This document shows positions 9,214 to 30,168 of a DNA stretch of 64,000 bases, piece after piece. The stretch is taken from assembly GCA_964349675.1 (NCBI GenBank), contig CAYGHD010000002.1, forward strand, positions 4,012-68,011, in the 5' to 3' direction. The notes under the pieces were generated by a model, which was not told the origin of the DNA, searched no databases, and saw only the letters and a program-made list of their open reading frames with translations. Numbering within the stretch: the first letter of the stretch is position 1; each line of letters opens with the position of its first letter. The position numbers and the translations under genes were made by a program. This DNA is from an uncultured Candidatus Saccharibacteria bacterium (GTDB lineage Bacteria; Patescibacteriota; Minisyncoccia; Phycocordibacterales; SBAW01).

Positions 9214-12200
9214 TCAGGCCGAGCAGCTTTCGCAAACTTCACCGATCATTTCTATCTTTGGACGCACCGTGCCTTTGTTTTTAGCGGCTTCTTCAGCAAG
9301 GAGTTTGGCAAGGCGGTTTTCTGATACTTGGGCAAGCGAGGTGTCCGCAAAGACGGGTGCTGCGGTTTGCGCCACTGCCAGAGGCGTTTCGCGCGCTACA
9401 GAGGCGGTCAGCATCGGGGTGCTCTGTGGGCGGGGCGCTTCAGCAAAAGCCATCTCGCCTTGGGCGTTCATCATGAGGGGCGAAGGTATAGAGCCGCTGA
9501 GTGGGCTGTGTGCAGCTTCAGTAATGGTCACAATTTCCTCGATGGTGACGGTGGCCATGCCGTTGCTGACACTTGCGTCAGTTTTTGAGGTGCCACCGAA
9601 CTTTTGCAGGTTTATGGTCGACTTTTCGATGCGGGATGCGCCCATGGTGCGCAGGTAGTACGTTGTCTTAAGTCCCAGTGCCCAGGCGTATTGGTAAATC
9701 TCTGAAAGTACTTTGCCCGAGGTGCCGCTGTAGAAGATGTTGAGCGACTGCGACTGGTCTATCCAGCGGCCGCGGTAGGCAGCTGCTTTGATGAGCCACT
9801 GTGGGTCAATCTCGAAGACTTCTTTATATTTGGCACGCAGCGCAGGGGGGATCTCCGCTATTTCTTGGATGCTGCCGTCGTAGAATTTGATTTTCTCCAG
9901 CATATCCATATTCCACAGTCCAAGGCGCTTCAGGTCTTCAACCAAAAACTCGTTCACGATCATAAAGTCGCCCGCCATGTTGGACTTTACGTACAGGTTT
10001 TTGTATATGGGTTCAATGGTTGGGTAGCAGCCGGCAATGTTTGCGGTTGATGCGGTTGGCGCATTTGCCATGGTGTTTGAGTTACGCATGCCCCACGTGC
10101 GCACCGCTTCGCGCACTAGGCGCCAATCCAAGCTCTCTGCGCGAGGTACGTCGATGCGGATGCCGCGCTCTTGCTCGAGCAATGCAAGGGTGTCTTGCGG
10201 CAAAATGCCGCGATCCCATTTGGAACCTTTGTACGACTCGTACGTACCGCGCTCTTTTGCAAGGAGTGCCGACGAGAGGATGGTGTGGTACGCAATGACC
10301 TCCATACTTTCGTCAGAAAAGCGGACGGCTGCATCTGAGTCAAAATTAATGTCCAGTTTGTAGAGCGCGTCCTGGAGCCCGCGGAGTCCCAGCCCCACAG
10401 GGCGGTGGCGCATGTTTGAGTTGCGGGTTTTGTCGGTTGGGTAGAAGTTAACGTCAATGACGTTGTCGAGCATGCGCATCGCAACAGGCACCACGCGGGC
10501 TACCAAGTCGCGGTCAAAGGCGCCGTGGCGTACAAAGCTCGACATATTGATTGAGCCTAGGTTGCAGACAGCCGTCTCCTCGTTGGGGCTTGAGTTGAGG
10601 GTTATCTCGGTGCACAGGTTGCTGGAGTGGACGACGCCAACGTGGTCTTGCGGGCTGCGGACGTTGCTTGGGTCCTTCCACGTTATCCATGGGTGGCCTG
10701 TCTCAAACAACATGGTGATGTGTTTGCGCCACAGGTCAGCAGCGCGCACGCGCTTAAACATCGGCATCTTGCCTTCGTCAGAGAGGCGCTCATATTCTGC
10801 GTAGCGCTCTTCAAACTTGCGGCCATATATCTCATGCAGGTCGGGCACATCAGAAGGTGAAAAGAGCGTCCAGTAGCCATCCTCTGCCAAACGCTTCATA
10901 AAGAGGTCGGGGATCCACGTTGCCGTGTTAAGGTCGTGTGCGCGGCGGCGTTCGTCGCCGGTATTTTTGCGCAGCTCGATAAAGTCTTCAATGTCAGCGT
11001 GCCAATACTCCAAGTACACTGCCTGGGCGCCACGGCGGCGGCCTGAGCGGTTGATTGAAATGGTGACGTCGTTTGCGATTTTGAGGAAGGGGATGACACC
11101 CTGGCTTTCTACCCCTGTAGTCTTAACCAGCGAGCCCGTTGCGCGCACGTTTGTCCAGTCGGTGCCAAGGCCGCCAGCATACTTCAACAACTGCGCGCCG
11201 TCTGAATATTCGCGGAAGATGGCGTGCAGGTCGTCGCCCACCGTAGCCAAAAAGCATGATGACAGTTGGGGGAGTTTGAGCCCTGCGTGGTAGAGCGTAG
11301 GGGACGAGGGGGTGTAGTACATAGCCGACATCACCTCATAAAACTCAACAGCATAGCGCTCTCTGTCTTCGGGCGTCTTTTCTGCCAAGGCGCAGCCCAT
11401 TGCAACGCGCATCCAGAATATCTGCGGAGTCTCAAGGAGTTTGCGGGTGCCGTGCTCTTTGGACAGGTAGTTTGCCTGTAGCGTCTGCAACCCAAGGTAG
11501 CGGAAGTCACGGTCGCGCTCGACAATCAGCGAGTCAGCGAGTTTTGCAAGGTCAAAGTCGAGCATGCGGGGGTCAAACTGGCCTATCTCAACGCCGCGAT
11601 GGATAGTCTTGATGAAAGCATTTTTATGCACCTCCTCAAGCTTAGTGAAGTCCATTTCGCCAAATACTTCTTTATAGAGCGACTGGAGCAAAAGCCGTGC
11701 TGCAACGGTAGAGTGTGCTGGGTCGCGCTCGATCATCGAGCGCACCACCATAATCAAAACGTCATGGATGTCTTTGGTCTTCATCTGGTCGTACATCTCT
11801 GCGCGGACACGGCCGATGATTGCGGGCACGTCTATCACGCGCTCCAGCCCTTCCGCGGCGCGCAAGAGGGTGCGGGTGAGTTTACTCTCACTAAATGCCT
11901 CTTTTGACCCATCCCGCTTGGTAATGAGGAGTGTATTTTCTATAATTTTTTCAATAACCTCCTCCTTTTTCTCTTCGCGGAGCTTGTTATGCTCGTAGCG
12001 GTAAATGATGTAGGATTTTGCGACGTTAAAGTAACCCCGCTCCATCAAAGCAGTCTCTACGAGGTCTTGAATATCTTCGACGCTGGGGATAAACGCGGTC
12101 GTGCCAAACTTCATGTCGATAGCGTCGACCACGACGCGGGTGATGTCTATTGAGTCTGCGTCATGCGAGTCGCCTAAAACCGCGGCAAAGGCTTTTTGTA

Positions 12201-12381
12201 TGGCCACCGTGACTTTGTCAGGATGAAAATCGACAATCTCTCCGTTTCGTTTTTTGATTTTTTGGGTGATGGCCATAGACGCGCGGCTTACGTTAATAAA
12301 TTGCCCTTGTGGGAAATACATTATACCTCTGACTCGTGGCATCATGCCCTGTGCATAGCGAATCCGAGAACTTTTTATCAA
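9214..12381 (-). CDS. nrdA: Ribonucleotide reductase class I alpha (large) subunit with N-terminal ATP-cone and extended C-terminal tail
   Basis: ATP-cone near the N-terminus (VDFHPDKVTVAIQKAF). Active site NLCTEITL. C-terminal CESC redox pair. The true start is probably the MAITQK Met near 12276. Confidence 0.9.
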   Translation of the reverse strand: MIKSSRIRYAQGMMPRVRGIMYFPQGQFINVSRASMAITQKIKKRNGEIVDFHPDKVTVAIQKAFAAVLGDSHDADSIDITRVVVDAIDMKFGTTAFIPSVEDIQDLVETALMERGYFNVAKSYIIYRYEHNKLREEKKEEVIEKIIENTLLITKRDGSKEAFSESKLTRTLLRAAEGLERVIDVPAIIGRVRAEMYDQMKTKDIHDVLIMVVRSMIERDPAHSTVAARLLLQSLYKEVFGEMDFTKLEEVHKNAFIKTIHRGVEIGQFDPRMLDFDLAKLADSLIVERDRDFRYLGLQTLQANYLSKEHGTRKLLETPQIFWMRVAMGCALAEKTPEDRERYAVEFYEVMSAMYYTPSSPTLYHAGLKLPQLSSCFLATVGDDLHAIFREYSDGAQLLKYAGGLGTDWTNVRATGSLVKTTGVESQGVIPFLKIANDVTISINRSGRRRGAQAVYLEYWHADIEDFIELRKNTGDERRRAHDLNTATWIPDLFMKRLAEDGYWTLFSPSDVPDLHEIYGRKFEERYAEYERLSDEGKMPMFKRVRAADLWRKHITMLFETGHPWITWKDPSNVRSPQDHVGVVHSSNLCTEITLNSSPNEETAVCNLGSINMSSFVRHGAFDRDLVARVVPVAMRMLDNVIDVNFYPTDKTRNSNMRHRPVGLGLRGLQDALYKLDINFDSDAAVRFSDESMEVIAYHTILSSALLAKERGTYESYKGSKWDRGILPQDTLALLEQERGIRIDVPRAESLDWRLVREAVRTWGMRNSNTMANAPTASTANIAGCYPTIEPIYKNLYVKSNMAGDFMIVNEFLVEDLKRLGLWNMDMLEKIKFYDGSIQEIAEIPPALRAKYKEVFEIDPQWLIKAAAYRGRWIDQSQSLNIFYSGTSGKVLSEIYQYAWALGLKTTYYLRTMGASRIEKSTINLQKFGGTSKTDASVSNGMATVTIEEIVTITEAAHSPLSGSIPSPLMMNAQGEMAFAEAPRPQSTPMLTASVARETPLAVAQTAAPVFADTSLAQVSENRLAKLLAEEAAKNKGTVRPKIEMIGEVCESCSA

Positions 12382-12618
12382 AAAATCAACTCTCTGAGGT
12401 AAAAAAGGACCAAAAGAATAAAATTTTACTCTTTATATCGCTTTTTTTGCGCAAAAATGAGCAACTTCTCCCACTTGCAACACATCTGCGTGGGTTGCGC
12501 CAAGTCTCCAGTGTGTCAAGGTAGCATGCGTTGGCGGGTGTGGACTGCGCAAGAGGCTATAGAAAACAATAAAGGTAGGGTACACTATAGGGCATTAGCC
12601 AGAGTAACGCATATATCC

Positions 12619-12774
12619 ATGGAAACTGAAGTAGCATACTGTGTTAAGTGTCGAGAGAAGCGAGACATGAAGGATCCTGCAGAGGTAGAGATGAAGGGTG
12701 GTCGCCGTGCGATGCAGGGCACTTGCTCGGTGTGCAGTACAAAAATGTTTAAGATCCTGGGCAAAGCAAAATAA
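12619..12774 (+). CDS. Small zinc-ribbon protein, DUF5679-like (~51 aa)
   Basis: CVKCREKRDMKDPAEVEMKGGRRAMQGTCSVCSTKMFKILGK, two CxxC pairs. The longer ORF from 12457 is probably 5' extension artefact. Confidence 0.5.
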   Translation: METEVAYCVKCREKRDMKDPAEVEMKGGRRAMQGTCSVCSTKMFKILGKAK

Positions 12775-12819
12775 TTACAAGGAGCATGGGCGGCCGATAA
12801 GCCTCTTTCCACCAAATGC

Positions 12820-13329
12820 GTGGGAGGGGCTTATCCGTTGCCTCTATCGACCTTTCCATCATCCATGAAAGCAAAAACAACATATACTCCAGGACTTTTT
12901 GACCTTGCGGTGCGCCGCTCTACTGCGGGGCTCGGCCTTTTTACCAACAGCGCTATCCCAAAAGGGGCCTGCGTTATCGAATATGTTGGCCGCGTACTGT
13001 CTAAAGAAGAAGAATATTCGAGCCGGAGCAAATATTTATTTGAAGTAACCAAAACCAAAACCATTGACGGTGCGTCGCGGAGCAACACCGCACGGTATAT
13101 CAACCACTCGTGCCGCCCAAACTGCGAAATTCGGATACGCGGAGGTCAGGTGTTTGTATTTGCAAAGCGCGCCATAGCGGCAGGAGAAGAGCTGTCATAC
13201 GACTATGAGTCTGACTATTTTGATGCGTACATCAAACCAAAAGGCTGCCGCTGCGCTAAATGCAGTGCTACAGCACCAAAAACCAAAACAACAACGCGAC
13301 GAGTATCCGGTACACGCCAAACGGTATAA
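12820..13329 (+). CDS. SET-domain protein-lysine N-methyltransferase-like protein
   Basis: NHSCRPNC and ELSYDY SET signatures plus a post-SET CRCAKC cluster. Starts at GTG 12820 or ATG 12865. Confidence 0.75.
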   Translation: MGGAYPLPLSTFPSSMKAKTTYTPGLFDLAVRRSTAGLGLFTNSAIPKGACVIEYVGRVLSKEEEYSSRSKYLFEVTKTKTIDGASRSNTARYINHSCRPNCEIRIRGGQVFVFAKRAIAAGEELSYDYESDYFDAYIKPKGCRCAKCSATAPKTKTTTRRVSGTRQTV

Positions 13330-14035
13330 AGGTGTGGTGTTTAATCATGCGCAGCAGCCAGGTGATGCTTAAAAGCGCGACCACAAACGCGGTGACGTAG
13401 CCTACTGCTAAAGGGGCTATGTGCGCCGTGGTGAATGATTGGTAATTTTTGAGTACGTCTAAGCCCGTTGCGGCTGCCATGGTCGGTACCGCCAAGAGGA
13501 ATGAAAACTCTACAATCGTGTGCCGCCGCAGCCCCAGCAGCAGGCCGCCCACAATGGTCGCTGCCGAACGAGAGACTCCAGGGATTACAGCCAATGCTTG
13601 AAAGAGTCCGACCCCGAGCGCTTGAAGGTATCCAACTTGCTCCACCTCGCCCTCTTTGGCGGGACGCTCTTTGTGGAATAGTTCGAACAAAATAAGCACG
13701 GCACCGCCCAAGGCGAGCGCCCACAGCACTACCTGCTGGTTGCCCACAAGGTGTGCTTTGATGAAGGGGTAGAGCAGTAGCCCAATGACCGCTGTGGGCA
13801 TAAAGCCGACCGCCAGCCGCTTTAAAATTTCGATATCAAGGAACTGCCGCCAATACAGCGCCAACACCGCGCCAATGGCGCCAAGTTGTATTGCAATTTC
13901 AAATGTTTTTACAAAGTCGCTCTGGGGCAGCCCAAGGAGGTGGCTGGCAAGGATGAGGTGGCCGGTTGAGGAGATGGGTAAAAACTCGGTAACACCCTCA
14001 ACAACTCCCAGTATGAATGCTTGCAGCAAGTCCAT
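13268..14035 (-). CDS. uppP: Undecaprenyl-diphosphatase
   Basis: VVEGVTEFLPISSTGHL motif. Multi-TM protein of the BacA family. Confidence 0.9.
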   Translation of the reverse strand: MDLLQAFILGVVEGVTEFLPISSTGHLILASHLLGLPQSDFVKTFEIAIQLGAIGAVLALYWRQFLDIEILKRLAVGFMPTAVIGLLLYPFIKAHLVGNQQVVLWALALGGAVLILFELFHKERPAKEGEVEQVGYLQALGVGLFQALAVIPGVSRSAATIVGGLLLGLRRHTIVEFSFLLAVPTMAAATGLDVLKNYQSFTTAHIAPLAVGYVTAFVVALLSITWLLRMIKHHTFIPFGVYRILVALLFWFLVL

Positions 14036-14145
14036 GTGTTGTATTGTACATGATGAAGGAGAGTATTTACAAAATTACATATAGTTGCATAATTTTTACT
14101 TTTAGGTACTCTTTAATTGTATGTGGCGCCTGGCGCTTCAGACGT

Positions 14146-17100
14146 ATGACTCTCTATAAAAACACGGCCTACGCCAAGGGGTTTGCGACTATATCTATAG
14201 GTATTTTGCTGCTGACACCCCTCCTTTCATATGCACAAGAGGCGGCTTTAGATACGCCTGTGCAACAGTCTCCAAGCGCCCCAGTAGAGGAGGTTGCTGC
14301 CCCAGATGCTCCTGCGGCTAGTGCAGAGCCACAAATTGCAGCAGCAAGCACGGCTGAGGTTGCGCGGCCTACCATTGATGCGCCCCAACTTTTTACGCAC
14401 GGGTCGCTGGCGCCAAAAGTTTCAGAAACAACCGGCGCGCTCACTGAGCGTGTCGAGCTGGCATTGCCACCGGGGCGAGGAGGCATGACTCCCGACTTGG
14501 CGCTTGTATATAACAGCCAAGATCGCAAAGACAGCATCGTCGGCTATGGATGGTCGCTTTCAATACCCTATATAGAGCGGCTCAATAAAACAGGGTCTGA
14601 GCGCATGTATGTCGACAACTACTTTAGTGCATCGCAGGGTGGTGAGCTTGTGGCGGCTGTAGAAGCAAATGAATATCGGCAGCGCATCGACGACGGCACG
14701 CTGTATGTTTTTAAAAACAATGTTTGGACTGCGTTTGATAAAAAGGGCATCCGCTATACCTATGGGCAGACCCAAGCAGGGCGGCAATTTGCAGCAGAAG
14801 ATCCTGCAAAAGTAGCGCGGTGGATGCTGCAAGAAATCCGGGACACCAACGATAACCGCATTGTTTATGCCTACGCCAAAGAGGGAAGTACGCTCTATCC
14901 AGCCTCCATTACGTATACCAACAGTGGCGCTACTGCGGGGGCATTTGCTGTGCGTTTTGCCTATGAGGCTCGCCCCGACACATTGGTGTCGCACGCCACG
15001 GGTTTTGCCGTAACGCTGCAAAAACGGCTTAAAGCAGTTACGGTTTTGGCAGAGGGCACGGTGGTGACCAAATATGCCCTTACCTATGTGCCGGGGAACA
15101 ACGGTGTCCGCTCGCTATTGAGCGCGCTGCAGCAGACAGGATACAGCGATGGGGGGCAGCAGCAGCGGCCAGCAATACAATTTACCTACTCGGCAACACC
15201 ACCCACATACACACCCAAAGAAAGCTCCCAGTTGTACAATGCGGCGCACGTCGCTGCAGATGCGGACGGCAACGGTTTGCCCGACTTTGCACTGTCGTAT
15301 CAAAACCCTGTATCTCTACAAAAATGGATGTCCGTAGACCTTAATATGTACTCGGTTGTTGCAAACAGGCTCTACCCAAACATGCCCGAGCATTGGTCTA
15401 TATCCGTAGCAGCGCCAGACAACTACCGGCCAGCAGAGGAGGGAGTGCGGTTTTTTGACGCAAACGGAGATGGAAAAGCAGACATTGTGCGCAGTATACG
15501 TATGCGCGATGGCGAGTTGCGTCAAGCGTACTATCAAAACGAGTCAGTCGGCTCGGGGTTGTCGTGGATCCCAAAACCTAATACAGGACTACCTATATTT
15601 GCATACAACCGCATGCGCAATTCTTATGAAGACGTTACCTACAGCACAGGGCTCTTTGGCAACGTAAATGGTGATGGGTTGGTGGACTATGTCTTTTCAC
15701 TCCCGCAGATTGTCTACTCTGGCCTCGACGGTACCTACTTGCACACCAGCGAGCAGGCTGGGTGGGAGTTTGCGACGAGCACGTTTAGCCCGGTGGCAAC
15801 TATGCCCATAACCACCGACGACACCACCGCATCCCAGCTGGTCGACATCAACAGTGACGGGCTTGATGACTGGATGGTGTCGGCAGGGCCAGCGACGTAC
15901 TTTTGCCTCAATACCGGCACGGGTTGGGAAGCAAATTGTGAAAATGGATGGAAGATAGCCACCACGACGCGCCAGGAGACAGGTTGGGACAAAGGCATCA
16001 GATTTATAGATATGAATGCAGATGGACTGCCAGACTATGTGCGCGCCTACCACATGCCGCAATATCAGTACTTAACGAACGGTGCAAAACCGATAGATAC
16101 GAAAATATATAATTATGTATATCTAAACACCGGCTCTGGCTGGGCAACCAGCACGCTACAAATGCCGTCCTTCATATTTTTAGGGCACCCAACGTCGGTG
16201 AGTTGGGGAGGTGATGTTGAATATGATGAGTATGTTGATTGGAATGGCGATGGATTTTTAGACAGCAGCCATATGCAGAGTGAGGGCATGATACCTGATG
16301 TTTTGACCACAGTAACGTACCCAACCGGCGGGAGCATTGGCGTAACGTACGCATTTTCAACCAAGTCGGGGGAGAACCCAGACCTCGCCTTCCCCATGCT
16401 GTTGGTGACAGACATTACGGTCAATAACGGCCTTGGCCGCAGCGACAAAACAACCTACTCGTATGCGGGAGGTAAGTGGCACATCCCGGGCGATGTGCGC
16501 GAGCGGCGATTTGCAGGCTTTGCCAAAGTCACGGCGGTGGATCCAAACAAAACAGTGGTGACGTATTTTAACCAAGGGGATGCGGTGTCTGGCGATGGAG
16601 AGCAGAGCGACCATGTGGCGCAAATCGGGCGCGCATATCGAGAAGATATACTAAGCCCCTCGGGTGCGCTCGAGCGCAAGACGCTCACGCGCTATCAAAC
16701 GTTTGACCAAAACGGTGCGTACAAAGTGTTGCCAGTGCAAGAAGTGTCACAAGACTACAATCAAAATGATACACATCGAGATGCGGCAAAAACGTATACC
16801 TATGACCCGCTGACGGGGGATTTGCTGCAAGAGGTGCAGTGGGGCGAAGTTGCGGGGTTGGCAAACGGCTCATTTACTGACATGGGCGCGGACACGTACA
16901 CCGCCATCATGCGCTATGCGCCAGGTACGGCAAAGGCGATGCGGGTGCTGGTGAGCGAAACAAAAACTGACAGCGCAGGTAGCAAGCTGGCCGAAGCGAA
17001 GCATTACTACGATGGTTTGCCGTTGGGCAGCGCCACGCGCGGCATGGAGACAAAAACAGAACGCTGGCAGCAGGGCGCTGTGTATAGCACAACGCTGCGC

Positions 17101-19935
17101 GCCTACAATGCACAAGGGTTGCTGACGCAAGAGACAGACCCCCGCGGCAATACAACAGCATATACCTATGATGCGCGGCTGTTGTATCCAAGCGTGGTGC
17201 GCAATGCCTTGGGGCAGCAAGAGACATACGCATACAATTATGCATTTGGCACAGTGGTGCAAAAAACCGATGCAAATGGGGCGGTATATCAGACGCAATA
17301 CGACCCGCTCGGGCGGGTGGCAGAGGTGCGGGTGCCCGAGCTGGGCGCCACTGCTGTCAAAACGCGGTATCACTATACAGACACCGTGCCGACAATGGTT
17401 AAAAAAATAGACTACCTTGACTCTGCTGTAAGTACTGCGGCAGTTACCTACTATGACGGCCTTGGACATGCCGTGCAGGAAAGAAAGCAGATGGAGGATG
17501 GGATGTTTGGGGTGATTGACTATCAATACGACACCGCGGGGCTTTTGTTGTCGGACTCACTGCCGTATGCGGCGGGTGGTGCTGAAGCGCGGCTTGGCCA
17601 AGCACCTCTGACACTTAAGCGCACCTACACATACACGCCACTTGGCGATGTTGCGTCGGTGACCAACGCTGTTGGAGTGACCACGTTTGCTCGCGACGAC
17701 TGGAGCACCCGGGTGACTGATGCAAAAGGCAAACAAAAAGTGCTCTACACCGACGCGCATGGCAACCTGGCGCAAGTGGACGAGCAGCTTGGCGGCTCGA
17801 CCTATACAACGCGTTATGCATATCAATTGGGGCTGCTGACCCGCATCAGCGATGCTCTGTCTAATGTGCGCGCCTTTGCCTATGACGGGTTGGGCAACCG
17901 TGTGCGTGCAGAAGACCTGCATGCGCCAAGCGACACACAGTTTGGTGTATGGGTGTATGAGTATGATGCTGCAAGTAACCTTATGCAAAGCAAAAATCAA
18001 GCAGGGCAGGTGGTGCGGTATGCATATGACTCGCTCAACAGAGTAACAAGCGAAGATTTTTTGGGTGCCGGCGGCATAGAGAGTGCATTCACCTACGATG
18101 CATGCGCCTTTGGAGTGGGGCGTTTGTGCACAGCAACCATGCGCCCCGGTGTCGCAACTGCATACACCTACAACCCACAAGGGTTGGTTGCCATCGAGCA
18201 AAAAACAATCGGCGCAGGCGTGTATGCAACAGCATATGCATACAACCGGCAAGGGCAGGTGACCCACATGCTCCACCCAGACAACCTTGAGACGCGCTAC
18301 ACGTACAACACCGCAGGGTTGCTTGAGTCTGTGCTGGGCGGAAAGGTGGGTGGTACGCTGGTTGGCGCATCAAATATTAATTACTCGCCCGCAGGGCAGG
18401 TGAGCGGCATGTGGTACACCAACAACACGGTAACCACCAACACCTATGACCCAAACAAATTGTATTGGCTCAAAACCAGACAGACGGTGGGGCCAAACAA
18501 CACCATGGTGCAAAATCTTTCCTACGTCTACGACCCGGTTGGCAACATCACGCGCATTACCGATGCGGCCGATGCAAACGATGTGAAGATGTCGTTGTTT
18601 GCCTATGACGACCTACATCGGCTGGTCATTGCATCAACTACTGCAGCAACAACTACCCCAACCTACCGCTATGTATACCGCTACAATCCGCTTGGCAACA
18701 TGGTGAGCGACTCCACCACCACCTACACCTACGCGGGCACCGGCTATGCAAACCCGCATGCCCCCACCGACCTACGCACAGGCTCATCAACCACCACCTA
18801 CACCTACGACCCCCTCGGCAACCTCACTCACAGAGGAGACACCACCCACACCTTTGACTACCAAAGCCGCCTTACCCAAACCAACATAGGCACCTCCACC
18901 AAAGTGACCTACCGCTACGACCATCAAGACAACCGCGTCTTGGTACACGACGGCATCCAAACCCTCTACCCAACACACCACTACAGCAAACAAGGAGCCA
19001 CCTCCACCCTCTCACTCTTTGCAGGAGACACACTCATAGCAACCCTAGAGTCCAAAGCCACCCGCACCACGCCTACCTACATCCACACCGACCACCTAGG
19101 CAGCACACAGCACACTACTAACCAACAGGGAGCAGTCACCCAAACACTCCAGTACTATCCGTATGGGGAAGCGCAAGCCCACACAGGCACTGCAACCCAG
19201 AGAGAATACATCGGCCAAGTGCACGATGAGGCAAGTGGATTGCTTTACCTGAATGCGCGGTATTATATGGGCAGGGGACAGTTCTTGTCAGAGGACCCGG
19301 TGTTTTGGGAGGTGGGGCAGAGTCTCGAGGATTCAGATATAATGCATTCTCATCAAACAGGATTGTATGCAGTGCCAGGATATGACAATACCCTCGGCAA
19401 AAAGAGTAAAGCTTCTGTTCAAGAGGAATTCCTGCTTGACCCCCAAATGCAGAATTCGTATGGATATGCACGGAATAATCCTATAAATAGGAAAGATCCA
19501 ACTGGAGAACTTCCAATATTGCCAATACTTGCAGTATATTCTGTTATGCAAAATCTTATAAACTTGTACGAAGCAAAAACAGTGTTTTTGGACTACCCAG
19601 AAGTGTTTACTTCACAAGAAAAATGGCAAACTGGATTTAAGGTTGGATTTGATGCAGCGATCTTTGGTGCAGGTCGGGCAACAAAAGATATTGCCACAAA
19701 AACTTTCTTACAAGTTGGGCCCGTTATTCTTGATGTAACAGATCATTTCTTTGCACCACAGATTTATCAAAATATAGATCAGTCGCAAACAAAAAATCGA
19801 TCGCCTATTCTTACTGGATACAATCAAGCGCAGTTATCAGCAATGTCCTCTTTCGCACAATCATTCGGATTCTCTACCCTTTCTCCAATGCAGGTAAAAG
19901 CTGTGGAGCAAGTACGTGCCGTATTCAGTAAATAA
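14146..19935 (+). CDS. Secreted SpvB/FG-GAP/RHS-repeat polymorphic toxin (Tc-toxin TcB-TcC-like fusion) with variable C-terminal toxin domain
   Basis: Signal peptide, then the SpvB motif (GYGWSLSIP). FG-GAP-like D-x-N-x-D-G repeats follow: DANGDGKADIV, DINSDGLDDW, DMNADGLPDY. Many YD/RHS repeats follow: YTYDPLGN, YAYDSLNRV. The RHS core is RYYMGRGQFLSEDP...NPINRKDPTGE. A ~145-aa C-terminal domain follows, with no recognisable family. Confidence 0.85.
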   Translation: MTLYKNTAYAKGFATISIGILLLTPLLSYAQEAALDTPVQQSPSAPVEEVAAPDAPAASAEPQIAAASTAEVARPTIDAPQLFTHGSLAPKVSETTGALTERVELALPPGRGGMTPDLALVYNSQDRKDSIVGYGWSLSIPYIERLNKTGSERMYVDNYFSASQGGELVAAVEANEYRQRIDDGTLYVFKNNVWTAFDKKGIRYTYGQTQAGRQFAAEDPAKVARWMLQEIRDTNDNRIVYAYAKEGSTLYPASITYTNSGATAGAFAVRFAYEARPDTLVSHATGFAVTLQKRLKAVTVLAEGTVVTKYALTYVPGNNGVRSLLSALQQTGYSDGGQQQRPAIQFTYSATPPTYTPKESSQLYNAAHVAADADGNGLPDFALSYQNPVSLQKWMSVDLNMYSVVANRLYPNMPEHWSISVAAPDNYRPAEEGVRFFDANGDGKADIVRSIRMRDGELRQAYYQNESVGSGLSWIPKPNTGLPIFAYNRMRNSYEDVTYSTGLFGNVNGDGLVDYVFSLPQIVYSGLDGTYLHTSEQAGWEFATSTFSPVATMPITTDDTTASQLVDINSDGLDDWMVSAGPATYFCLNTGTGWEANCENGWKIATTTRQETGWDKGIRFIDMNADGLPDYVRAYHMPQYQYLTNGAKPIDTKIYNYVYLNTGSGWATSTLQMPSFIFLGHPTSVSWGGDVEYDEYVDWNGDGFLDSSHMQSEGMIPDVLTTVTYPTGGSIGVTYAFSTKSGENPDLAFPMLLVTDITVNNGLGRSDKTTYSYAGGKWHIPGDVRERRFAGFAKVTAVDPNKTVVTYFNQGDAVSGDGEQSDHVAQIGRAYREDILSPSGALERKTLTRYQTFDQNGAYKVLPVQEVSQDYNQNDTHRDAAKTYTYDPLTGDLLQEVQWGEVAGLANGSFTDMGADTYTAIMRYAPGTAKAMRVLVSETKTDSAGSKLAEAKHYYDGLPLGSATRGMETKTERWQQGAVYSTTLRAYNAQGLLTQETDPRGNTTAYTYDARLLYPSVVRNALGQQETYAYNYAFGTVVQKTDANGAVYQTQYDPLGRVAEVRVPELGATAVKTRYHYTDTVPTMVKKIDYLDSAVSTAAVTYYDGLGHAVQERKQMEDGMFGVIDYQYDTAGLLLSDSLPYAAGGAEARLGQAPLTLKRTYTYTPLGDVASVTNAVGVTTFARDDWSTRVTDAKGKQKVLYTDAHGNLAQVDEQLGGSTYTTRYAYQLGLLTRISDALSNVRAFAYDGLGNRVRAEDLHAPSDTQFGVWVYEYDAASNLMQSKNQAGQVVRYAYDSLNRVTSEDFLGAGGIESAFTYDACAFGVGRLCTATMRPGVATAYTYNPQGLVAIEQKTIGAGVYATAYAYNRQGQVTHMLHPDNLETRYTYNTAGLLESVLGGKVGGTLVGASNINYSPAGQVSGMWYTNNTVTTNTYDPNKLYWLKTRQTVGPNNTMVQNLSYVYDPVGNITRITDAADANDVKMSLFAYDDLHRLVIASTTAATTTPTYRYVYRYNPLGNMVSDSTTTYTYAGTGYANPHAPTDLRTGSSTTTYTYDPLGNLTHRGDTTHTFDYQSRLTQTNIGTSTKVTYRYDHQDNRVLVHDGIQTLYPTHHYSKQGATSTLSLFAGDTLIATLESKATRTTPTYIHTDHLGSTQHTTNQQGAVTQTLQYYPYGEAQAHTGTATQREYIGQVHDEASGLLYLNARYYMGRGQFLSEDPVFWEVGQSLEDSDIMHSHQTGLYAVPGYDNTLGKKSKASVQEEFLLDPQMQNSYGYARNNPINRKDPTGELPILPILAVYSVMQNLINLYEAKTVFLDYPEVFTSQEKWQTGFKVGFDAAIFGAGRATKDIATKTFLQVGPVILDVTDHFFAPQIYQNIDQSQTKNRSPILTGYNQAQLSAMSSFAQSFGFSTLSPMQVKAVEQVRAVFSK

Positions 19936-19941
19936 TACACT

Positions 19942-20196
19942 ATGTCAATTGAATTGATGCTACAAATAATCACTCTAATATTAGGAAGTTGGTTCTCGTA
20001 TACTGGATTTCGAACACTCTTGTCAAAAAAATATTACGTTGATGAGATTGAAGAAACAAGAGGTGAGTCTGTAGAAGACAAATATAAGTCGTTACCATCT
20101 TGGCGAATAATGTTTACAAGATACAGTTATGGTGGACAATGGTTGGTATTCGGATTGGGATTGCTCACGCTTTTCTTTCTGAGTTTATTTAAATAG
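19942..20196 (+). CDS. Putative immunity protein for the RHS toxin C-terminal domain (small 2-TM membrane protein)
   Basis: Starts 7 bp after the RHS stop. Low GC (~35%), matching the toxin tip. Two hydrophobic helices. Confidence 0.4.
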   Translation: MSIELMLQIITLILGSWFSYTGFRTLLSKKYYVDEIEETRGESVEDKYKSLPSWRIMFTRYSYGGQWLVFGLGLLTLFFLSLFK

Positions 20197-20263
20197 TAAA
20201 TCTAAAACTAGAAGACAACTGAATACAAAAAAGAGATAATAGGGCCAGCCACTATCTCCATAA

Positions 20264-20330
20264 CCAGAATACATTGGCCAAGTACACGATGAGGCAAGTG
20301 GATTGCTTTACCTAAATGCGCGGTATTGAG
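20264..20330 (+). repeat. Orphan duplicate of the RHS core junction (IGQVHDEASGLLYLNARY-stop)
   Basis: About 58 nt nearly identical (3 mismatches) to 19208-19265 inside the RHS gene, followed directly by a stop codon. Confidence 0.65.
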
Positions 20331-20341
20331 AATATAAATAA

Positions 20342-20362
20342 GCCGCCCGGAGGCCGGGCGGC
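20342..20362 (-). terminator. Intrinsic terminator for the minus-strand gene ending at 20375
   Basis: gccgcccgg-agg-ccgggcggc hairpin followed by a T-run on the minus strand. Confidence 0.5.
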
Positions 20363-20374
20363 TTGGAAGGGGTG

Positions 20375-20707
20375 TCAGAGTCCAAGGCTGAAGGAAAGAT
20401 AGTACAGCCCGATGCGGATTCTCCGATAGAGCCGATATGCGTGGAGGCCCAGCCATAGGAGCACGTTGATGATGGGTACGGCGTACATGAGCTCCAGCCA
20501 AAAGGGTACCGGCACTTCAAGCCCGAACGCCCGGTAAAATGCGGCCAGCGGCTGGAGCCAAGCGACGCCAGCCGCAGCCAGCATAAACCCCGCTACGCAG
20601 ATGGCCACAAGGCATGTAAAAACGAATACAAAGGCTTTCCAGAATGCCAACCCTGGGTCGTCGTCGTTTGCTGGGGTCACCCCATGCGTGTATTCCATGG
20701 TTCCCAC
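20375..20707 (-). CDS. Hypothetical membrane protein
   Basis: Two to three hydrophobic helices. Last gene of the minus-strand sigma/RND/DedA string. Confidence 0.35.
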   Translation of the reverse strand: MGTMEYTHGVTPANDDDPGLAFWKAFVFVFTCLVAICVAGFMLAAAGVAWLQPLAAFYRAFGLEVPVPFWLELMYAVPIINVLLWLGLHAYRLYRRIRIGLYYLSFSLGL

Positions 20708-29866: not shown

Positions 29867-30168
29867 TCCGGTGTAGCTCAATGGTAGAGCAGCTCCCTGT
29901 CTAAAGGCAGCCTTTCAGAGGAATCTGAATTGAAAAACGAGGTGAATTCGGGGAAACCCCTCTGGGGCAATCCCGAGCCAAGCTCCAACCACATGTTGGA
30001 GAAGGTGTAGAGACTATCCCGAAAGGGAGTAGCCTTGCAATGTGCAGGGCGAAGCGCCTCGCATCCGACAACTTCTTGTAAGTTGGGATGATGATATAGT
30101 CCACGCCCGCAGCAATGGGGGATTCACGTGTAAGGAGTTGGTTCCAGGTTCGAGTCCTGGCGCCGGAG
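29867..30168 (+). tRNA. tRNA-Asn(GUU) interrupted by a 230-nt intron between anticodon-loop positions 35 and 36
   Basis: 5' exon 29867-29900 is TCCGGTG-TA-GCTC-AATGGTA-GAGC-A-GCTCC-CTGT. 3' exon 30131-30168 is TAA-GGAGT-TGGTT-CCAGG-TTCGAGT-CCTGG-CGCCGGA-G. All four stems pair; U8, A14, GG18-19 and the T-loop are canonical. U1-A72 and G73 are as in bacterial tRNA-Asn. The spliced loop is CUGUUAA. Confidence 0.8.
29901..30130 (+). ncRNA. Group I (IC3-like) self-splicing intron within tRNA-Asn
   Basis: Strong resemblance to the conserved IC3 core of cyanobacterial tRNA-Leu and Azoarcus tRNA-Ile introns: GGGAAACC...CAATCCCGAGCCAAGC...GAGAAGGTGTAGAGACTAT...ATAGTCC. P1 can form between exon CUGU|C and intronic GGCAG with a U.G wobble at the 5' splice site. 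The intron ends in G. Confidence 0.75.

Follow-up and report, generated by a model that had tools for sequence, protein, structure and literature searches.

Probable exchange of a low-GC tip and its candidate immunity gene in a predicted Sec-exported Rhs/YD-repeat toxin

INTRODUCTION

How does the C-terminal tip of a large polymorphic toxin come to be replaced together with the gene behind it, and can the borders of such an exchange be read from the DNA? This question is raised by a 64-kb stretch of contig CAYGHD010000002.1 (the whole stretch is referred to below as the window, and positions are those of the window unless another locus is named). The window carries an Rhs/YD-repeat gene that ends in a GC-poor tip, with a small open reading frame (ORF) directly downstream. 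An original prediction made from the sequence described the product as a secreted SpvB-FG-GAP-Rhs toxin with a horizontally swapped tip, followed by an immunity candidate and a remnant of the Rhs core. Based on the analyses reported here, this interpretation is essentially right and is supported, with several revisions of lengths, compositions and borders. The locus very likely encodes a Sec-exported Rhs/YD-repeat toxin with an exchanged tip and immunity cassette, in which the tip would be released autoproteolytically and a protein with two transmembrane (TM) helices would protect the producer.

Displacement of C-terminal regions and orphan modules have been described for enterobacterial Rhs proteins (Poole et al. 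2011, PMC3150448), and the principle of polymorphic Rhs proteins with low-GC tips and orphan remnants is well established. Rhs-type toxins with a neighbouring immunity gene are also mentioned in passing for a Saccharibacteria genome (PMC6031116), so the presence of Rhs toxin/immunity pairs in the candidate phyla radiation (CPR) is not new. What is new here is the tip/immunity family itself, together with a view of its exchange at the level of single bases.

RESULTS

Two syntenic Rhs loci carry unrelated cassettes between homologous flanks

For comparison, we used the locus of P0144 (L012), which is the second member of the 90%-identity cluster of the Rhs protein and lies on a 547-kb JGI contig. 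The two Rhs proteins are 94% identical, and the gene order at L012 is syntenic with that of the window (genes for ribonucleotide reductase [RNR], SET and BacA, the Rhs gene, a convergent small gene, and genes for VTT and AcrB). Using BLASTN, we found two blocks of homology: 12000-19308 of the window matches 5855-13163 of L012 with 96.1% identity, and 20266-23000 matches 16821-19538 with 90.7% identity. Between these blocks, the window has a cassette of 957 nucleotides (nt), and L012 holds ~3.6 kb of unrelated DNA with a different glycine-rich tip, membrane ORFs of 185 and 199 amino acids (aa), a second core copy (15233-15491, 97% identical to the L012 main gene) with its own tip, a 154-aa ORF and a terminal core remnant of 193 nt (16690-16882). 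In all, three membrane ORFs lie in this interval of L012. The shell is thus conserved between these close relatives, with 96% nt identity up to 19308, and the tips beyond are unrelated. This comparison bears out the proposed displacement of a tip cassette: the flanks are 96% and 91% identical, the tips and ORFs between 19308 and 20266 are entirely different, and L012 provides alternative tips on the same core rather than the same low-GC segment without variability.

The exchanged segment is also set apart by its composition. The GC content is 0.539 in the Rhs body, 0.385 in the tip, 0.341 in the 84-aa ORF downstream of it and 0.348 in the spacer, with 0.386 for the interval 19265-20265. The 1-kb segment starting at 19351 has a GC content of 0.380, the minimum among all 1-kb segments of the 64 kb (mean 0.516, standard deviation 0.032). 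The GC drop noted earlier is therefore real and extreme, but its values shift from 58% to ~54% for the body and from 32-35% to 34-39% for the cassette. The drop had also been placed exactly over the tip, which does not hold. The GC content at third codon positions (GC3) falls from 0.59 for the gene to roughly 0.10-0.45 (about 0.25) in the cassette, and it stays at 0.70 until ~19335, giving a composition break near 19310-19335. The foreign segment thus starts inside the Rhs core, ~185 nt 5' of the sequence encoding DPTGE. The exchanged unit begins within the core after FLSEDPVFW and takes in a variable insert as well as the NSYGYARNNP..DPTGE segment.

An inherited core remnant forms the right-hand border

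Downstream of the small ORF lies a second, stop-ended copy of the core junction, which is real and 62 nt long instead of the 58 nt first given. The copies at 19203-19264 and 20266-20327 are identical at 59/62 positions, and the three differences are all synonymous third-position changes. In frame, copy 2 reads (P)EYIGQVHDEASGLLYLNARY followed by TGA at 20328-20330, and the terminator hairpin of the convergent gene begins about 10 nt past this stop codon. Two of the three variant bases of copy 2 (ATT and CTA) are common to the terminal remnant of L012, and the junction ...TATTGAGAATATAAATAAGCC is the same in both; the L012 remnant ends ...CGGTATTGAGAATATAAATAAGCCGCCCGG, exactly at the junction of copy 2. 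Read from these shared bases, copy 2 is an old, shortened orphan core inherited from the common ancestor with L012. Because copy 2 and the ...LNARY-stop/terminator junction are common to L012, they represent the right-hand recombination boundary and not a scar of this particular event. The suggestion that copy 2 records where a previous tip was replaced is thus correct in that it marks the boundary of the locus, but the copy predates the event. We also considered whether copy 2 might be a recent duplicate in which mutation is turning GC into AT; this was rejected, since two of the three differences are shared with the L012 remnant.

We note that the window core at 19290-19300 has an SED codon variant (TCAGAGGA), as does the orphan core copy of L012 (15469-15479), while the main gene of L012 (13145-13155) has an SQD variant instead. 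This match to the orphan rather than the main copy suggests mosaic exchange or gene conversion between core copies.

In the simplest mechanism compatible with these sequences, a double crossover, the last ~60 core codons, the tip and the immunity gene would form one cassette of about 1 kb that entered by homologous recombination. The left crossover would lie in the conserved core and be resolved by nt 19308, and the right crossover in the EYIGQ...LNARY stretch of the shortened orphan-core remnant (from nt 20266); in the window lineage, the incoming cassette would have replaced everything from the main core up to the final 62 nt of the remnant. A double crossover fits two other observations: the SED match to the orphan core copy of L012, and the orphan modules found elsewhere, several of which have their homology start close to this REYIGQ / LNARYY position. 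A Campbell-type single-crossover insertion of a circle with 62-nt homology was rejected as a simple explanation because the interval 19265-19335 has host-like GC3, homology to L012 reaches 19308, and the ...LNARY-stop junction predates the split from L012.

The cassette family is found in hosts of different composition

The closest relative of the cassette, L001, matches the window at the DNA level over 19453-20202 (67%). This stretch reaches from the last part of the core to where the small ORF ends, which indicates that these parts travel together. Cassettes of the family have a native-like composition in genomes of 39-43% GC (L002, L005, L015 and L016) and are GC-poor in hosts of ~50% GC (window, L001, L008 and L011). 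A lower-GC genome of the Patescibacteria is a plausible donor.

Family cassettes, orphan or terminal, adjoin genes for IS200/IS605-type Y1 transposases at L001 (7770-8444) and L011 (2008-2682), and an rve integrase fragment lies beside the cassette at L007 (7929-8234); these genes are possible vehicles for cassettes between genomes. P0121, the closest relative of the tip (L001 5974-7080), is an orphan module outside any Rhs locus, located between a gene for a tRNA-binding domain and a transposase gene. Its ORF starts with an unrelated, GDSxxxG-like fragment at the N-terminus, which is joined to the final ~330 aa of an Rhs protein.

A two-TM ORF follows the tip in 12 of 12 distinct loci

The 84-aa ORF has no match in Pfam, NCBIfam or PHROG. 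To place it, we relied on 12 distinct tip loci (window, L001, L002/L016, L005/L015, L006, L007, L008, L009/L010, L011 and L014). In 12/12 of these, an ORF of 73-88 aa with two hydrophobic segments lies directly 3' of the tip, starting a few to ~30 nt after the tip stop codon (the ORF of L006 is cut by the contig end). Divergence of the ORF tracks that of the tip: identities to the window pair are 73% (ORF) and 65% (tip) for L001, 55% and 55% for L002, and 44% and 50% for L005. Compared with shuffled controls, the more distant ORFs gave z scores of 7.4 (L007), 7.4 (L011), 5.7 (L009) and 3.6 (L006, the truncated ORF), and that of L008 reached only 2.0. Between the window and L001 or L002, the proportion of synonymous differences (pS) in the ORF is saturated at 0.77-0.84 and that of nonsynonymous differences (pN) is low at 0.19-0.28, supporting that the 84-aa ORF is a real gene under purifying selection. 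The same two-TM partner accompanies tips with different tails, which argues that the partner tracks the helical domain of the tip and not its tail. Moreover, where orphan Rhs modules lie next door in these arrays, recognized immunity genes occupy the corresponding place (for example, Imm26 at L005).

In position, conservation and co-divergence, the 84-aa ORF thus behaves as a cognate immunity gene, its protective function being predicted from sequence, and tip and ORF show the standard signature of a toxin/immunity pair. The immunity candidate of the original prediction is in this way backed by homologous ORFs that follow the tip in all 12 distinct loci.

On a 77.7-kb ENA contig of the window organism, the 84-aa ORF (L003 15926-16180) is not called as a gene, and no gene is called between the Rhs gene and the convergent gene. 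The only record of an identical protein comes from an ENA contig of 751 nt. In L002 (1998-2441), L014 and L016, a second conserved membrane ORF of ~147 aa (...FGMKSLLHLADGFGSFSAGESYGTYGDAF...) lies 3' of the immunity gene; it is without a counterpart in the window.

The tip belongs to a family of predicted helical domains behind Rhs cores

The tip had been described as a domain of ~145 aa without a recognizable family. It is 141 aa long and indeed has no Pfam, NCBIfam or PHROG match, but relatives occur in about 22 clusters. These were identified by an exhaustive phmmer search of 1.84 billion representatives, which gave 24 clusters at E <= 1e-3, including the protein itself and P0131, a PKD-repeat protein that we dropped as a low-complexity false positive. 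Word-indexed searches with the tip alone or with a profile of 23 sequences found nothing or one match; they also missed the window protein itself, and we therefore consider their near-empty result a sensitivity artefact. Scanning genomes and metagenomes with a further alignment added only three loci and one locus, respectively. In a Pfam scan of all family members, no family was common to the members, and the profile of the 23-sequence alignment gave only chance matches among PDB sequences (best E = 0.11, cystatins). Named sources of the tip family are Candidatus Adlerbacteria and Minisyncoccia, both of the Patescibacteria; named full-length Rhs relatives come from Paceibacterota, Kaiserbacteria, Ryanbacteria, Parcubacteria and the Patescibacteria group, with a few from other phyla. 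Judged by the names of these relatives, the window organism most likely belongs to the Patescibacteria (CPR).

All true members directly follow an Rhs core ending in DPxG[E/K/R/L/M]. The conserved part comprises ~100 aa with three predicted helices, of which the first is hydrophobic (mean Kyte-Doolittle value over 19 residues of about 1.5 in the window and 1.4-2.4 in relatives). Y15, Y34, D53, D80 and D83, within an LDVLDxYFGxQIY motif, are nearly invariant. Structure prediction with AlphaFold2 (AF2) and the 23-sequence alignment returned an all-helical model with a mean predicted local distance difference test (pLDDT) score of 64.6, while the model from the tip sequence alone (pLDDT 38) was not usable. 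Neither for the tip nor for the 84-aa ORF was a known family or fold found.

The ~100-aa domain is followed by a Q/S/N-rich linker and then by one of several short tails or none. The tails are of the LWVTPSGAVVTWGGxL..P, ..QVRxAFSK and QLVSSLSxLVSSLSAYVSSLSG types and are common to unrelated toxin domains (window 19800-19932; L012 13800-13937 and 16100-16195; P0122, P0124, P0126, P0129, P0140 and P0141). They occur on the glycine-rich tips of L012 as well as on the helical tips of the window family and look like an independent module.

The Rhs protein combines a predicted signal peptide with a TcB/TcC-like scaffold

The features of the locus are listed in Table 1. The open frame of the Rhs gene extends over 14017..19935 (+), and counting from the ATG at 14146, which is the start in the independent gene call for P0144, the giant protein has one residue less than the 1930 aa originally reported. 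The upstream ATGs at 14017 and 14050 are alternative starts, either of which would bury the signal peptide; a promoter-like site is found at 14066-14093. By eye, the N-terminus has a basic n-region, a hydrophobic core of 16 residues and an S-Y-A cleavage motif.

Table 1. Coordinates of features at the Rhs locus of the window
Feature	Position	Strand	Evidence
Rhs polymorphic toxin gene, 1929 aa plus stop	14146..19935	+	ORF list, profile matches, start Met of relative's gene call
Predicted Sec signal peptide, MTLYKNTAYAKGFATISIGILLLTPLLSYA then QE	14146..14235	+	Sequence reading
SpvB/TcaC N-terminal domain, best stretch, residues 95-180	14428..14685	+	Pfam PF03534, E = 2.7e-17
FG-GAP-like beta-propeller repeats, best of 4 stretches, residues 567-632	15844..16041	+	Pfam PF13517 (FG-GAP_3), E = 7.9e-07
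YD/RHS repeat shell, first best-scoring repeat at residue 987, extends to core	17104..19152	+	PF05593, TIGR01643
Rhs-associated core: ...EYIGQVHDEASGLLYLNARYYMGRGQFLSEDPVF, variable insert of 45 aa, then NSYGYARNNPINRKDPTGE with both Asp motifs	19153..19509	+	TIGR03696
Core-junction repeat, copy 1, inside Rhs gene	19203..19264	+	Repeat search
Exchanged low-GC cassette: core end, tip, candidate immunity ORF, spacer	19309..20265	+	Homology to relative L012 ends at 19308 and resumes at 20266
C-terminal tip, 141 aa: ~100-aa helical, partly hydrophobic conserved domain, Q/S/N-rich linker, short tail ...KAVEQVRAVFSK	19510..19932	+	Tip family, AF2
Candidate immunity gene, 84 aa, two TM helices, starts 6 nt past toxin stop codon	19942..20196	+	Linkage, co-divergence, pN/pS
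Shortened orphan Rhs-core remnant (copy 2, 62 nt, EYIGQVHDEASGLLYLNARY) plus in-frame TGA	20266..20330	+	Repeat search; orthologous to L012 terminal remnant
GC-rich terminator hairpin of convergent gene, fixed right border of variable locus	20340..20364	-	Kept in L012
Convergent membrane-protein gene, 110 aa, first conserved flanking gene	20375..20707	-	Syntenic in L012

The match to FG-GAP_3 scores 30 bits (cutoff 26.9). Multiple YD/RHS repeats are documented by PF05593 (RHS_repeat) in eight stretches (E = 8.8e-32) and by TIGR01643 (4.5e-28), and PF25023 (TEN_YD-shell) is a precomputed annotation of the protein. The core scores 43.1 bits against TIGR03696 (Rhs_assc_core; curated cutoff 32.5), and both Asp motifs (FLSEDP and KDPTGE) can be read in its sequence, with DPTGE encoded at 19495-19509. 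Profile matches and sequence reading thus agree with the earlier domain list of signal peptide, SpvB, FG-GAP, YD/RHS shell and a core running to DPTGE. SpvB (PF03534), beta-propeller (PF13517) and RHS cocoon (PF05593) together make up the architecture of Tc toxin TcB/TcC proteins. We note that the stretch 18600-19100 has a strongly negative GC skew (-0.4 to -0.5) and a positive AT skew; it corresponds to the Thr/Tyr-rich last shell repeats (ACC/TAC codons), a conserved part of the Rhs gene.

DISCUSSION

On sequence features, the window system is an Rhs/YD polymorphic toxin, with repeats, core, variable C-terminus and downstream immunity gene. It shares with enterobacterial Rhs proteins (PMC3150448) and Bacillus WapA the YD shell, the DPxG-ended core, the variable C-terminal toxin with an immunity gene directly 3', pieces of the core further downstream, and GC-poor tips that are replaced through recombination within the core. 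It differs from them in its N-terminus (Sec signal, SpvB and FG-GAP instead of a PAAR/VgrG linkage to type VI secretion [T6SS] or a wall-binding domain) and in the residue after DPxG, which is E/K/R in the window family and not L/W. Moreover, in the window family a variable insert of 8-50 aa splits the Asp motifs and moves with the cassette, the host probably belongs to the Patescibacteria, and the toxin and immunity families are unclassified. With the TcB-TcC cocoon (Photorhabdus TcdB2-TccC3 and Yersinia YenB-YenC2), the protein shares SpvB, beta-propeller, RHS cocoon and a hypervariable C-terminus behind an aspartyl autoprotease, and in the window protein the TcB-TcC parts are fused in one polypeptide. 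The label Tc-toxin B/C-like is accordingly apt for the domain architecture but does not extend to a TcA partner: apart from the Rhs gene, no ORF of the 64 kb exceeds 1100 aa and none is of TcA size, and the other large ORFs encode RNR, AcrB, a HlyD-like protein, penicillin-binding proteins and lysyl-tRNA synthetase. The linked immunity gene and the orphan arrays point to an interbacterial rather than an anti-eukaryote use.

From these features we infer that the protein cleaves itself, that its tip is toxic, that the small ORF confers immunity and that the toxin acts at the membrane. SpvB, beta-propeller and YD shell would serve as a conserved delivery and encapsulation scaffold. The aspartyl protease of the Rhs core probably cuts at DPTGE, freeing a 141-aa helical, partly hydrophobic toxin, and the 84-aa two-TM protein probably protects the producer in its own membrane. 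We favour action at the membrane because the protein proposed to confer immunity is small and membrane-integral and because a hydrophobic helix stands at the start of the toxin; in line with this, the alternative cassettes of L012 also pair glycine-rich, hydrophobic tips with membrane ORFs.

Pore-forming colicins and the T6SS effectors Tse4 and Ssp6 are membrane-targeting interbacterial toxins with small integral-membrane immunity proteins. As in these systems, the toxin of the window pair would be helical and partly hydrophobic, and its immunity protein small with more than one TM helix; no similarity in sequence or fold was found, and the analogy is functional only.

Several observations weigh against this account of the cassette and its membrane action. 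The tip has no detectable relative of known function in Pfam, NCBIfam, PHROG or PDB sequences; only one of its segments nears TM-like hydrophobicity; and its AF2 model is confident only for residues 1-60 (pLDDT 71-94) and falls below 60 beyond. No TcA, T6SS or type VII secretion system gene was seen in the 64-kb window, which bears on delivery into a target. The closest cassette, that of L001, is distant at only 67% DNA identity, and the donor was not found. Finally, the nearly invariant D53, D80, D83, Y15 and Y34 are at least as compatible with an enzyme as with a pore former, and the invariant Asp and Tyr residues lean towards an enzyme. In its explicit form, this alternative holds that the tip is a small helical enzyme, a hydrolase or transferase whose substrates would be lipid head groups or lipid-linked cell-wall precursors at the membrane surface, similar to TelC and other Lipocone proteins, and that the two-TM protein blocks it there. 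We regard it as possible without being probable. The presence of nearly invariant acidic and aromatic residues in a helical domain of ~100 aa with the LDVLDxYFGxQIY motif speaks for it, as does the similarity to Lipocone tips (TelC, Min-Wnt and CapCone), which are likewise small and all-helical, occur at the ends of polymorphic toxins, carry conserved acidic residues and are paired with immunity proteins of the membrane or periplasm (PMC12419801). Lipocone proteins are, however, defined by a cone of four helices in which a His (H2), a Glu (H3) and an Asp (H4) are conserved (PMC12419801), and neither this four-helix core nor the His/Glu/Asp pattern is evident in the window tip family, for which there was no structural match.

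An accessory role of the 84-aa ORF, be it as membrane partner, as chaperone of the hydrophobic tip or as a second component of the toxin, is unlikely, and so is a tip directed at host cells in the manner of Tc toxins. The scaffold is TcB/TcC-like, and Patescibacteria are described as epibionts that attack host cells (PMC13622651), both of which would suit such a role. The position, size class, tight linkage and co-divergence of the ORF nevertheless fit a cognate immunity gene, adjacent orphan modules of the same arrays have the recognized Imm26 at the equivalent position, and effectors against unrelated targets normally are without a linked immunity gene (PMC12419801). Even less probable is that the low GC content reflects an intrinsic constraint on the cassette, through amino-acid composition or selection for AT-rich sequence, and not recent horizontal acquisition. 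Tip and immunity genes of the family are GC-poor (0.33-0.44) in nearly every genome regardless of host GC, as this explanation expects. Against it, the drop is strongest at synonymous third positions (0.25 vs 0.59), the low-GC segment coincides exactly with the synteny break to a 96%-identical relative, a different cassette at the same site has already been seen once, in L012, and the L007 cassette, with a GC content of 0.46-0.51 in a host of 0.52, indicates that low GC is not obligatory.

Returning to an exchanged, membrane-acting toxin/immunity pair, we tentatively suggest that tip and two-TM protein may be an unclassified family with the cytoplasmic membrane as its site of action, to date observed in Patescibacteria only. 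The conserved Asp and Tyr residues could then mark a new small helical enzyme on membrane lipids or lipid-linked wall precursors, and the short tails common to unrelated tips (LWVTPSGAVVTWGG-type and ..QVRxAFSK-type) could be a separate, undescribed module that serves packaging into the Rhs shell, release from it, or target-cell entry.

The genomes of Patescibacteria are tiny and the cells live attached to others, yet here almost 6 kb are devoted to one Rhs weapon, the warhead of which is being exchanged among lineages. The locus represents a clean natural case of tip displacement in an Rhs protein from outside the Proteobacteria and Firmicutes, the groups studied well in this respect; its two recombination borders can be placed to the base, and it brings in a new, probably membrane-directed toxin/immunity family that is directly testable. 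It also hints that competition or host attack in the CPR uses Sec-exported TcB/TcC-like shells without a known injection apparatus.

Unrelated to the Rhs locus, ARAGORN found no tRNA anywhere in the window, and a stretch without a convincing long ORF contains a complete group I catalytic intron at 29886-30122 (+), identified with Rfam RF00028 at 62.6 bits (gathering score 50; E = 1.7e-13).

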